Assembly (NCBI GenBank): GCA_963731265.1 | Contig: CAVSUE010000001.1 | Span: 1,600,001 to 1,664,000, forward strand | Direction: 5' to 3' | DNA: 64,000 nucleotides | Source of the DNA: an uncultured Verrucomicrobiae bacterium | Lineage (GTDB): Bacteria > Chlamydiota > Chlamydiia > Chlamydiales > Rhabdochlamydiaceae | Shown: positions 17,429 to 43,675 of the stretch, in pieces | Layout: each line of letters starts with the position of its first letter | Position numbering within the stretch: the first letter of the stretch is position 1 | Position numbers and translations under genes: made by a program | The notes under the pieces: generated by a model | Databases searched by the model: none | What the model saw: the letters and a program-made list of their open reading frames with translations, nothing else | What the model was told of the DNA's origin: nothing

Positions 17429-17646
17429 ATATACTGCTCCCACTTGAAAGTTAGGAAAATTTCCGCTTCAGCATCTTCACTTATGGACGTCGTGTTGCGC
17501 CGGCCTTTTTGTTCGTTTCCATCGACAATGTGCCTGCACATTGTCTAAACCCAAGTTGACTCAAAAGTTGGGTATACTTCGACAAACAAAAAATGGAAGC
17601 GCTGAAATTGAAATTTTCTATAACTTTCAAGTGTCAGCAGTATATA
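17429..17646. mobile_element. Family E MITE (E2) with nested F mini-element (17546-17576)
   Basis: ATACTGCTCCCACTTGAAAGTTA...TAACTTTCAAGTGTCAGCAGTATATA; insert TAAACCCAAGTTGACTCAAAAGTTGGGTATA is absent from the same site in E4 and E5. Confidence 0.9.
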
Positions 17647-17659
17647 CTAATTCTACATC

Positions 17660-18268
17660 TTATTTAAAAATATAGATTCCCGGAAGGCCACGATAGAGTT
17701 CCTTATAGTCTAAGCCGTAACCAATAACAAATTCATTTTCAATATTGAAAAGGATGTAATCCGGGACATAAGCCACATTCCTTTTTACATTTTTTGCCAA
17801 AAGGACTAAAGATTTAAGCGTTTTGGGCTTCTTTCCTTTGACCCCGGCGAAGATCTTGGAAATGGTCTGGCCGGAATCAAAAATATCGTCGACGAGAAGA
17901 ACGTTTTTAGCGGAAAGATCTAAATCCTCCATGCCAAGGATCTCCAATTCGCCCCGTTTGATGCCCCGCTGCCCATAACTGCTGGCGCTTATGTATTCGA
18001 CTACGCAAGGAGTTTTGAGTTCTCTGATCAGATCCGCTGCAACACACAAAGCGCCTTTCATGACCAGCACAATGGTCAGCTCTTCCCCTTGGTACTCTTC
18101 ATCTAAAATCCGAGCCACCTCCGCAATTTTTTGTTTGATCTCGTCTTGAGAGATGAGAAGTTCAGTATTGTCCATGAAGTTAGTGTTGGTCGCTGTTGAA
18201 ACGAGTTCTTCCGAATGCACGGCGCATGGAATTCCAAAGAAAGCAAGAAAAAGCAGGGCCAGTAGCAT
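17660..18268 (-). CDS. hpt: Hypoxanthine phosphoribosyltransferase with hydrophobic N-terminal extension
   Basis: VMKGA, SSYG, VLLVDDIFDSGQT PRPP-binding motif, FVIGYGLDY..YRGLP. Confidence 0.9.
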   Translation of the reverse strand: MLLALLFLAFFGIPCAVHSEELVSTATNTNFMDNTELLISQDEIKQKIAEVARILDEEYQGEELTIVLVMKGALCVAADLIRELKTPCVVEYISASSYGQRGIKRGELEILGMEDLDLSAKNVLLVDDIFDSGQTISKIFAGVKGKKPKTLKSLVLLAKNVKRNVAYVPDYILFNIENEFVIGYGLDYKELYRGLPGIYIFK

Positions 18269-18435
18269 GAATCGTAGATTCCCCCGAGTTCTTAGTAAGA
18301 TACATGGAGAAGAGGCTAATATGCAAACGGATTTTTGTTATTAAAATTCACCATAGAGATGGGAAACCAATTCATATCCTCTCCGTAGTAAAATTTAAAC
18401 TATTTGCGCAAACGAACTCAGAGATGCAAAATAAC

Positions 18436-41192: not shown

Positions 41193-42314
41193 ATGACACA
41201 AACACATTTATTTATCACCTGCGCGGAATATCTCGAGCCCCTTCTTATCGAAGAGCTCAAAAGCCTTGGTCTTACCGATCTGCGGCTTGGCTTTCGCGGT
41301 ATTTATGCACCGAATTCCCAGGAAAACATCTATAAAATCAATTATCTCAGCCGCCTTGCCACACGCGTGCTATTGCCATTAGCGCAATTCCATTGTCCGG
41401 ACCCCGAAACGCTCTATAACGAAGCCAAAAAAATCCCGTGGTTGGACTATCTCGATGAAACAAAGACATTTGCCATTGACGCCAATATTCACCACCCACT
41501 TATCCGCCATTCTTTGTTTGGCGCCCAGCGGGTCAAAGACGCCATCTGTGATGTCATGCGAGAAAGGAAAGGCGTAAGGCCTTCCGTCGACGTCAAAAAT
41601 CCGGACCTTCAACTCAATCTTTTCATCCACAAATCCAAAGCCATCTTGAGCTTGGACACTTCAGGCGCTCCTCTTTATAGAAGAGGTTGGAAAGAGGGCA
41701 ATGTCGAAGCCGGCGTCTCGGAAACTCTCGCTTCAGCCATTTTGATGCGCGCAGGTTATTCCGAGCGGGAAATTCTCTGCGATCCCTTCTGTGGCTCAGG
41801 CACATTCCTCGTCGAAGCCGCCTGCATCGCTACGCTTACTCCCGCGGGTTATTTCCGCAAAAAATGGGGATTTATGCAGTTACCCGGCTTTAAATCTACC
41901 GAATGGGAAGAATTTAAAAACCATTACGACCAAAAAAGACGTTCTATCCCCTCGCAAATGATCATCGGGGCCGACAATGATCCCCATGCGATTCGTTTGT
42001 GCCGTGAACACTTGCATAAAACTGGATTCGAAAAAGAAGTTCTTCTTCTTAACGCTCAGATCTCTAAATTATCTCTTCCCCGTTCGCCAACTCTCCTTGT
42101 CACAGACCCGCCCTTTGGCAAACGGATGGAAGCATTCACACAAATTTACCACGATTTTGGCCAATTCTTAAAGGCCAAATGCCCCGCAGCCCCATGGGCC
42201 CATCTGCTCACTTCCACTTATCATTTGGTCAAAGCGACAGGCTGCACGGTCATGTCGGAATGGCCGCTGAAGCATGGCGGCCTGAATGTCACTCTTTACC
42301 AATTAAAAAATTAA
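41193..42314 (+). CDS. THUMP-domain rRNA m2G methyltransferase (RlmL-like)
   Basis: SLDTSGAPLYRRG, ETLASAIL, DPFCGSGT, TDPPFG. Confidence 0.88.
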   Translation: MTQTHLFITCAEYLEPLLIEELKSLGLTDLRLGFRGIYAPNSQENIYKINYLSRLATRVLLPLAQFHCPDPETLYNEAKKIPWLDYLDETKTFAIDANIHHPLIRHSLFGAQRVKDAICDVMRERKGVRPSVDVKNPDLQLNLFIHKSKAILSLDTSGAPLYRRGWKEGNVEAGVSETLASAILMRAGYSEREILCDPFCGSGTFLVEAACIATLTPAGYFRKKWGFMQLPGFKSTEWEEFKNHYDQKRRSIPSQMIIGADNDPHAIRLCREHLHKTGFEKEVLLLNAQISKLSLPRSPTLLVTDPPFGKRMEAFTQIYHDFGQFLKAKCPAAPWAHLLTSTYHLVKATGCTVMSEWPLKHGGLNVTLYQLKN

Positions 42315-42353
42315 TTTCCTGTACGTCTTCGCTAAGATCTGCTACAGGAAGAG

Positions 42354-42539
42354 TATACTGCTGACAGTTGAAAGTTATAGAAAATTTCCATTTCAGCACT
42401 TCAATTTTTTGTTTGTTGAAGAAGACCATGTGCAAGCACATGGTCGATGGAAACGAACAAAAAGGCCGTGGCAAAACCACGGCCGTAAGTGAAGATGCTG
42501 AAGCAGAAATTTTCATAACGTTCAAGTGGAAGCAGTATA
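42354..42539. mobile_element. Family E MITE (E5)
   Basis: TATACTGCTGACAGTTGAAAGTTA...TAACGTTCAAGTGGAAGCAGTATA; reverse orientation relative to E2. Confidence 0.9.
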
Positions 42540-43675
42540 TGTTCGGAAAACGGATTCATCTATTCACCATTACGGGAATTAAGATCGCCATCGATCTCAG
42601 CTGGTTCCTCATTGCCTTTCTGCTCGCTTGGTCGCTGGCGGCCGGCTATTTTCCCTTTTATTATCCGCAGCTCCTATTAAGCACTTATTGGGCAATGGGC
42701 GTCATCGGCATGCTTGGACTATTCGTCTGCGTGATTTTGCATGAATTGGGGCATGCAATGGTGGCCAAACATTACAAGCTTCCTATTAACCAAATCACCC
42801 TGTTTATCTTCGGCGGCGTCGCAGAAATCAAAAAGGAGCCGCAAACTCCCAAAATTGAATTTCTCATGGCGATAGCAGGGCCGATTGTCAGCCTCATTCT
42901 TTCCGGAGGTTTGTATCTTTTGACCCTCGCCGGCAGAAATGCGCAATGGCCGGTGCCCGTCATCGCTGTGACCAGTTACCTCGCGCTCATTAATTTTGTC
43001 CTTGCGATTTTCAATTTAGTCCCTGCCTTTCCTTTAGACGGAGGAAGGATTTTCCGTGCCATTCTGTGGTGGATCAAAAAAGATTCCGAATGGGCAACTA
43101 AGATCGCCTCGCGCATGGGAGCAGGATTCGGCATGCTCTTAGTTTTTTTCGGTATCTTCGCCCTCATTACCGGTAATATCATCGGCGGTGTCTGGTTTAT
43201 CATCTTGGGCCTCTTTTTACAAAGAGCTGCCGCGATGTCCCGTTCGCAGCATCTGGTTACCCATGAACTCCGCGGCGAGAAAGTCCAGAAATTCATGACA
43301 AAAAAGCCGATCAGCGTTCCTCCCAACGCCTCTATCAAGGAATTTATCGAAGACTATGTCTACCACACCTATCATCATCTTTATCCCGTCACCGAAAAAT
43401 CCACCTTGATCGGATACATCAGCCTAAGAGAAGTCAAAGCCATCCCCTCGGAAAAATGGGCAAAAATGTCCGTCCACGAAGCCATGGTCTCCACCTCTCG
43501 CTTCAAAACCATAACCCCCGAAACCACGGCTTTAGAGGCTCTGGACCTCATGAACCGCTCCGAAATGCCCATCATCCTCGTCGTGAAGGGAAAGCAATTG
43601 GTTGGCATTCTCACCGCTCAGGATCTGTTTAAGCTCATCTCAATAAAGCTTGAGTTGCAGAGCGATTCGAATTAA
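42539..43675 (+). CDS. Site-2 (M50) zinc metalloprotease with two CBS domains
   Basis: HELGH, AGP, FNLVPAFPLDGGR, C-terminal CBS pair. Confidence 0.93.
   Translation: MFGKRIHLFTITGIKIAIDLSWFLIAFLLAWSLAAGYFPFYYPQLLLSTYWAMGVIGMLGLFVCVILHELGHAMVAKHYKLPINQITLFIFGGVAEIKKEPQTPKIEFLMAIAGPIVSLILSGGLYLLTLAGRNAQWPVPVIAVTSYLALINFVLAIFNLVPAFPLDGGRIFRAILWWIKKDSEWATKIASRMGAGFGMLLVFFGIFALITGNIIGGVWFIILGLFLQRAAAMSRSQHLVTHELRGEKVQKFMTKKPISVPPNASIKEFIEDYVYHTYHHLYPVTEKSTLIGYISLREVKAIPSEKWAKMSVHEAMVSTSRFKTITPETTALEALDLMNRSEMPIILVVKGKQLVGILTAQDLFKLISIKLELQSDSN

Follow-up and report, generated by a model that had tools for sequence, protein, structure and literature searches.

One end of a MITE (a miniature transposable element with inverted repeats), here called the L end, abuts the ATG start codons of several genes in an uncultured Chlamydiia-like bacterium. 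We followed this arrangement in a 64,000-nucleotide stretch of its genome (the window; C1:1600001-1664000) and across the whole assembly (G000; 2.34 Mb, 46% G+C, two contigs). We hold it about an even bet that at these starts the L end takes the position of the ribosome-binding site (RBS) and serves as a weak replacement Shine-Dalgarno (SD) sequence, in the orientation that permits read-through and with a shared, folding leader.

The element is a non-autonomous, TA-duplicating MITE of ~185-217 bp with two dissimilar ends. The L end reads …CAAGTGGAAGCAGTATA (longer reading …GAAGCAGAAATTTTCCTAACTTTCAAGTGGAAGCAGTATA) and the R end …CAAGYGTCAGCAGTATA (longer reading …GAAATTTTCTATAACTTTCAAGYGTCAGCAGTATA). 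Within the terminal 14 nt the two differ at two bases, with GGAA in L and GTCA in R; the distinguishing core is GTGGAAGC in L and GYGTCAGC in R.

Junctions between the L end and start codons in the window

Three genes in the window begin directly at an L end. On the plus strand, a full-length copy with one TA of the target duplication occupies 42354..42537 (R end at 42354, L end at 42537) and precedes a 378-residue M50 protease with CBS domains (42539..43675; Pfam Peptidase_M50 and CBS), the start of which is conserved. The second TA lies at 42538-42539 and supplies the A of the M50 ATG. The junction reads CAAGTGGAAGCAGTAT-ATG (ATG at 42539-42541), with the SD-like motif GGAAG of the L end (42528..42532) 6 nt before the start codon. 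The other two junctions lie on the minus strand. A copy at 17430..17646 (L end at 17430, R end at ~17644-17646), within which a fragment of a second MITE family is nested near 17548-17580, precedes an rfbA-like glucose-1-phosphate nucleotidyltransferase gene of 297 codons (16535..17428, starting at 17428). Its junction is CAAGTGGGAGCAGTATAT-ATG (ATG at 17428-17426), and the motif GGGAG (17437..17441), one A>G change from GGAAG, stands 8 nt from the start. A rearranged copy at 37621..37870, which retains an intact L end, has lost the R end and contains ~110 bp of another repeat nested within it, precedes a Cro/C1-type helix-turn-helix (HTH) gene of the HTH_26 family (71 aa; 37405..37620); here the junction is CAAGGGGGAGCGGTAT-ATG (ATG at 37620-37618), with GGGGGAG (37627..37633) 6 nt upstream.

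A 27-nt L-end pattern matches the window four times at ≤3 mismatches, against none expected in 100 shuffles, and three of the four matches abut an ATG. The fourth belongs to a short form of the element (640..744, minus strand), in which the L end (640) is directed towards the 3' end of the gene upstream and adjoins no start codon. A preliminary description made from the window alone had reported the three junctions, the distance of 6-8 nt, the overlap of a terminal TATA with the A of the ATG at the HTH and M50 genes, the frame open through the element at the same two genes and the share of three in four; each of these was recovered. Its motifs were read correctly at the three junctions; the family consensus is GGAAG, however, and not GGGAG, the copies at rfbA (GGGAG) and at the HTH gene (GGGGGAG) carrying private variants. 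The HTH-side L end carries three changes from the consensus, every one to G.

Genome-wide placement of element ends at start codons

A Hamming scan across G000, allowing up to 9 mismatches in 34 positions, located 59 ends, 35 of type L and 24 of type R. An end was counted as abutting when an ATG lay -1 to +4 nt from it and opened a long open reading frame (ORF); this range of offsets was picked post hoc, after the data had been seen. Seven of the 35 L ends abut a gene in this way (ORFs of 71-468 aa), and none of the 24 R ends does. Besides rfbA, the HTH_26 gene and the M50/CBS protease, the abutted genes encode an APC-type permease (468 aa), peptide deformylase (def, 177 aa), a zinc-type alcohol dehydrogenase (ADH, 339 aa) and the type III secretion ATPase sctN (438 aa, offset +4).

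Chance placement was modelled on all TA sites, scored per site and orientation for an ATG -1 to +4 nt after the TA that opens an ORF of >=70 aa. This null counts internal methionine codons as hits and is therefore conservative. The criterion is passed by 2.9% of 193,608 TA sites and by 3.0% of the 40,926 that are non-coding, so that ~1.0 of 35 L ends would be expected to abut a start (binomial P(>=7) = 5-7e-5). The enrichment over TA sites that the preliminary description had proposed as its test is present, and chance as the cause of L-end placement was rejected (P about 6e-5). L ends also differ from R ends (Fisher, p = 0.020) and from all 60 control ends (p = 0.0006), among them the 36 ends of a second TA-MITE family, none of which abuts an ATG in the equivalent window and one of which lies 6 nt from an ATG. 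Of the L ends, 20 face the 5' end of a gene, and seven of these lie <=4 nt away.

We considered TATG as a preferred target and rejected it: in a manual tally, TG follows the duplicated TA at ~8% of non-start copies, for L and R alike. The seven empty sites described below show no visible extended target motif.

These counts bear on an explanation without function, by which the transposase prefers start-proximal TA sites in one orientation or start-adjacent copies are simply trapped. Trapping has a logic of its own, in that an imprecise deletion near a start would destroy the gene, whereas copies in neutral DNA decay. Ongoing decay fits the divergence of the G000 copies (68-79% identity to the rfbA copy, indels included) and the many solo or truncated ends (24 of type R against 35 of type L). 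The excess, 7-fold over what neutrality predicts, is also more than SD rescue explains, and the abutting fraction is lower in the recent burst of a related genome (2 of 17, see below). The TG tally at both kinds of end and the seven featureless empty sites speak against an insertion preference, however, and a trap would hold R-end copies equally, of which none is seen. We regard insertion or retention bias alone as unlikely.

Conserved starts and empty sites

The abutting ATGs are, judged by alignment, the true and conserved starts of their genes, and the insertions are recent. Orthologues of the M50 protease align from residue 1 in nine genomes; for rfbA, def, ADH, the permease and sctN the alignments begin at residue 1 or 2 in five of five same-genus genomes each, some of the orthologues being broken or fragmentary. 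Pfam domains begin at residues 2-6 in the HTH protein (HTH_26 spanning residues 6-67), RfbA (NTP_transferase from residue 2) and Def, consistent with the abutting ATG as start; the M50 protease, the fourth protein scanned, was placed in the same range. No orthologue of the HTH gene was found in the five relatives searched, so this copy has no empty site. In one relative (G013; L015/L016, L019/L020, L039/L040) rfbA and sctN look split or carry in-frame stops and def has one in-frame stop, as it also has in G005; these broken genes may be assembly errors or decaying genes.

Empty sites were available for six of the genes in the closest relative, G003, which shares 93-100% identity with G000 in the proteins compared. 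The M50 site reads caggaagagTAtg, with a single TA, and those of ADH and def read ctaggtgTAtatg and ggtccccaTAtg. At sctN (gcaaaTAaatcatg) the TA belongs to the TAA stop of the upstream ORF; the permease site is represented by gaccTAtg and gaacTAtg, and the rfbA site (gaagcaaTAtatg) is less clean, its flank being somewhat diverged. In addition, contigs of relatives that are ~94-96% alike, from four DNA runs, bridge the M50 site and skip exactly 184 nt, corresponding to 42354..42537, with TA at both ends. Together the empty sites and the 184-nt skip identify the target duplication as TA and place insertion at the TA of TATG or at a TA 2-5 nt upstream. The SD-like motifs native to these genes (AGGAAGAG, AGGTG, AAGG and GAGGTGG) now lie ~190 bp off. 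The comparison of filled with empty sites shows insertion at or beside TATG, with a putative native SD cut off, at no fewer than six genes of G000 and one gene of another genome, in line with the insertion point and the displaced RBS that had been proposed from the window. The HTH gene and an ABC-2 permease case in that other genome (G002) have no empty site to confirm the insertion point.

An older event may be recorded at the same gene in another species. About 20-35 nt upstream of the ATG of the M50 orthologue in G001 (L006), the string actgggcgcagtata resembles a solo L end, for which we took that at C1:1307642 of G000 (AAGTGGGCGCAGTATA) as comparison; the string may be the remnant of an earlier insertion at this start.

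The conserved starts also bear on the idea that translation begins inside the element, with the conserved ATG reduced to an internal methionine of an N-terminally extended protein. Frames do run open through the element at the M50 gene (ORF 42368..43675, with 57 added codons from TTG 42368) and at the HTH gene (ORF 37405..37770), and an ORF resembling an outer-membrane protein (OMP-like) at C1:129725 is open in the same way and in the same frame. Yet orthologues and Pfam domains begin at the abutting ATG, rfbA, ADH and sctN stand in another frame (offsets +1, +1 and +4, against -1), upstream of the starts of rfbA and ADH the frame stays open for only ~5 codons, and by eye no better SD precedes the start codons within the element. 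Translation from within the element is accordingly very improbable. The OMP-like ORF at C1:129725, open through the element in the frame seen at M50, has no orthologue in the five relatives searched; its start, together with the charged portion of a signal peptide, may be encoded by the element.

Predicted pairing of the L end with 16S rRNA

The 3' tail of the 16S rRNA is GGATCACCTCCTTT. The distance from the SD-like motif to the ATG is 6 to 8 nt in six of the seven abutting copies and 11 nt at sctN. The L-end consensus, as carried by the M50 copy, forms a predicted duplex of -3.3 kcal/mol with the tail, against -1.8 or 0 for the R end; the rfbA and HTH copies reach -6.5 and -10.3 kcal/mol. 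At the empty sites, the native motifs reach -4.3 (M50), -3.8 (def), -2.9 (sctN) and -0.7 kcal/mol (rfbA). Since the spacing is right and the duplex energies are modest, the L end is a plausible but weak SD, about on par with the motifs that three or four of the genes previously had.

Several results weigh against a role as SD. At -3.3 kcal/mol, GGAAG is weaker than the median of ATG starts in G000 (-4.0 to -4.6 kcal/mol, from crude gene calls); random positions have a median of -2.5 kcal/mol, and 36% of them reach -3.3. The native motifs of the permease (-10.3 kcal/mol) and ADH (-6.2 kcal/mol) were clearly better than the L end that replaced them. Abutting L ends are not significantly stronger than the other 28 (Mann-Whitney, p = 0.18), nor is the share at -6 kcal/mol or stronger significantly higher (2 of 7 abutting against 3 of 28 others, p = 0.26). 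Improvement of the SD by selection in the abutting copies was rejected, as neither difference is significant.

Predicted leader folding and possible terminator polarity

The whole element is predicted to fold into a rod of -102 kcal/mol (z = -10.6), and none of 200 shuffles folds as well. At rfbA, M50 and sctN a same-direction upstream ORF stops 0-39 nt from the R end; at def, where the R end is deleted, such an ORF stops ~13 nt before the junction. As these ORFs end at or near the element, the whole element must be transcribed together with the gene. The shared structured leader of the preliminary description holds if the element is co-transcribed.

The same predicted folds count against efficient use of the L end. 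In them the R end pairs with the AUG and with the L end, GGAAG included, so that motif and start codon are mostly paired, and an accessible SD does not appear. Computed from -240 to +40, the probability that the SD region is unpaired is 0.12-0.38 in seven leaders versus 0.20-0.61 at the empty sites, and the predicted leader energies range from -79 to -111 kcal/mol.

At the sctN locus (C1:1882220-1882408) the element entered the stop codon of the small ORF upstream, at the TA of its TAA, and the R end adds five codons (YTADS) and a new TGA to that ORF. On reaching the end of that ORF, a ribosome would open the stem in which the sctN start is hidden.

The M50 copy carries one terminator-like hairpin, GGCCGTGGTTTTGCCACGGCC followed by TTTTTGTTCG (42454..42484, minus strand), with a 9-bp stem containing seven G-C pairs. 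It lies on the L-to-R strand only and opposes the direction of the abutting gene. On that arrangement, an R end next to a start would block transcription from upstream, and a 7:0 orientation is predicted by the terminator alone. This raises the alternative that terminator polarity sets the orientation, that GGAAG is incidental and that these genes, like many here, begin translation with scarcely any SD or none. The confinement of the hairpin to one strand could by itself explain the orientation bias, and two features of the SD data accord with it: the energy of GGAAG falls within the range of random sequence, without significant improvement in the abutting copies, and ~31-38% of ATG starts in G000 match the tail less well than -3.3 kcal/mol. 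Moreover, L ends predominate over R ends at 11-35 nt from starts as well (~4-5 against 1, from crude gene calls), where the native SD is retained, which hints at an orientation effect independent of the SD.

Polarity leaves unexplained, however, why L ends are in excess right at the start codon, with 7 of the 20 gene-facing L ends <=4 nt away. Nor does it account for the fact that L and R differ at precisely the two bases that form the purine run, or for the changes that created a GGAG core in two of seven abutting copies. The permease copy has no terminator hairpin and nonetheless has L at the start. A second family without a terminator-like site (one copy scanned) has 0 of 36 ends at starts, a weak contrast given that ~1 would be expected. 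We consider polarity acting alone possible, and less probable than SD replacement by the L end. Numbers in the genome are too small to separate SD donation from polarity, whether by the excess at 11-35 nt or by the 0 of 36 in the second family, and we think that both act.

RBS donation, the central claim of the preliminary description, stands in part. Spacing and the L-only placement agree with it; the weak duplex, the predicted pairing, the lack of SD improvement and the terminator alternative do not. The idea is plausible, its support is weak, and both the polarity of the terminator and the predicted sequestration of the motif confound it.

Proposed course of SD replacement

In the mechanism that we favour, the element inserts at the TA of TATG or at a TA 2-5 nt upstream and moves the native SD-like motif ~190 bp away, as the empty sites show. 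Only insertions with L next to the gene are seen, and these would let upstream transcription pass, since the terminator faces the opposite way. The GGAAG of the L end, 6-8 nt (at sctN, 11 nt) before the AUG, would then serve as a weak substitute SD, and two copies appear to have changed to the canonical GGAG core. The affected genes would gain a common, strongly folding leader. As the RBS pairs with the R end in the predicted fold, expression probably hinges on melting or cleavage of the stem, for example when a ribosome completes the upstream ORF or through RNase III.

Rescue of this kind accounts for the tolerance of insertions and not for a 7-fold excess over neutral expectation, a further point against SD replacement as the whole account. 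Retention of start-adjacent copies, or positive selection for the new leader, is a possibility for what lies behind the excess. A stronger version would make the element a mobile module of translational control: each gene's own RBS is exchanged for a common one locked in a ~90-bp stem, and unrelated genes such as sctN, def and rfbA come under one post-transcriptional switch, operated by a ribosome that terminates in the R end and melts the stem or by RNase III cleavage, with the excess at starts reflecting positive selection. We judge this version improbable, slightly more so than simple bias or trapping.

Distribution in other genomes

The end pattern is present in 8 of 19 genomes of the genus. 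G002 has 37 matches with near-identical ends, suggesting a recent burst; its main-family ends are all identical, and G003 is almost without the element. In G002, an ATG that opens a long ORF adjoins two of 17 canonical L ends, at an OMP-like gene and at the ABC-2 permease gene, and none of 18 canonical R ends. For the OMP-like case, the orthologue in G000 provides the empty site, ggagtttttTAtgcgt.

The remaining genomes tell against a general rule. Five others of the genus have no abutting case among ~11 L and 10 R ends, and further genome and metagenome loci have none in 26 L rows and 16 R rows, four of which repeat sites of G014. From the counts in G002 and in these remaining genomes, L-end placement at starts is real and recurrent, yet concentrated in two genomes.

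Two related groups of ends were observed alongside. Three metagenome loci (L109, L112 and L123) carry an L-end subfamily, AAGTGGAAGGAGTATA, with a canonical AAGGAG, and none of the three copies lies at a start codon. G002 (L042, L043, L048, L059 and L060) also contains a sister subfamily, which has CAGTGGAACCGGTATA and CAGTGTCGCCAGTATA as its ends and often stands in tandem with the main family.

Element architecture and neighbouring repeats

The architecture matches that of a MITE: TA duplication, inverted ends, rod-like RNA, gene proximity and a terminator-like site. The inverted termini of ~34 nt pair with each other except at a 2-nt mismatch, filled and empty sites reveal the TA duplication, and the element is small, dispersed and present in many copies (59 ends in G000 and 37 pattern matches in G002). 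No autonomous partner sharing these ends turned up in G000; the three end pairs 400-4000 bp apart that were examined enclose host genes only. Of the seven abutting copies, five have an intact R end, and those at def and at the HTH gene have lost it. A consensus scan of one copy, that at M50, gave no promoter-like site; by eye only, TTGAAG-19-TATAAC at the R end is a possible outward promoter. Rfam 15 gave no match at the gathering score, the best hit (23.5 bits against a cut-off of 140) being long-hairpin noise.

Other repeats accompany the element. A mini-element with two R-type ends (37343..37394, plus strand) lies just beyond the stop codon of the HTH gene, which is thus bracketed by element copies on both sides (37343-37394 and 37621-37870). 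The ~110-bp repeat nested in the copy upstream of the HTH gene (TATACACATCGTGACTCAAAAGTTGACC…) is a third repeat, likewise nested in the def copy. The second MITE family is ~255 bp long, ends in …CCAATTTTTGAGTCATTTTCGGTA followed by TA and has 36 ends on C1 of G000; examples lie at 3680-3940 of the window, C1 1203455-1203708 and C1 1412625-1412879. It folds into a rod of ~-100 kcal/mol and often adjoins first-family copies or sits inside them.

Comparison with known systems and implications

Target duplication of TA is typical of IS630/Tc1-mariner-type elements. The likeness of the present family to these elements and their MITEs lies in that duplication; no transposase-bearing partner was found in G000. 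Correia elements of Neisseria also duplicate TA, and their hairpin is cleaved by RNase III. They are functionally the closest system and, compared by description alone, are likewise short, gene-proximal MITEs with terminal inverted repeats. As the relevant part of PMC3184786 (Delihas 2011) describes them, Correia elements (NEMIS) carry functional promoters and a site for integration host factor (IHF) and fold into a hairpin if co-transcribed. The effects described for them are promoters, IHF binding and RNA processing, not replacement of the SD at a start, and their host belongs to another phylum. The same part of that source describes Neisseria REP2 and Borrelia IR-A/IR-B, repeats directly upstream of ORFs that supply RBS, promoter and ATG. 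By its description there, REP2 has no terminal inverted repeats and so is no MITE. In the present family, by contrast with REP2, the M50 copy has no promoter-like site and only the RBS-like motif is present, the ATG is the host gene's own conserved start, with at most its A drawn from the duplicated TA, and the SD-like motif lies inside the inverted repeat itself.

The pneumococcal repeats BOX, RUP and SPRITE are, in the portion of PMC3049150 that deals with them, co-transcribed with their neighbours and can form new ORF starts or, in SPRITE, be terminator-like; ORFs encoded by BOX are reported to have no good SD candidates. Placement at conserved start codons is not reported in that portion of the source. 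A literature search, mostly at the level of abstracts, found no description of a MITE end in the place of the SD at conserved starts, of placement strictly confined to one orientation or of a several-fold surplus at starts, or of this MITE family in Chlamydiae.

For annotation, the junctions mean that gene callers extend ORFs into the element, as at M50 where the ORF gains 57 codons, or miss the true start. Known gifts of MITEs to neighbouring genes are promoters, terminators and RNA-processing sites; takeover of the RBS position, if true, would be an added mode. If the L end works as an RBS, it would give a compact genome a way to tolerate insertions between the SD and the ATG, and it would bring unrelated and partly essential genes under a common structured leader.

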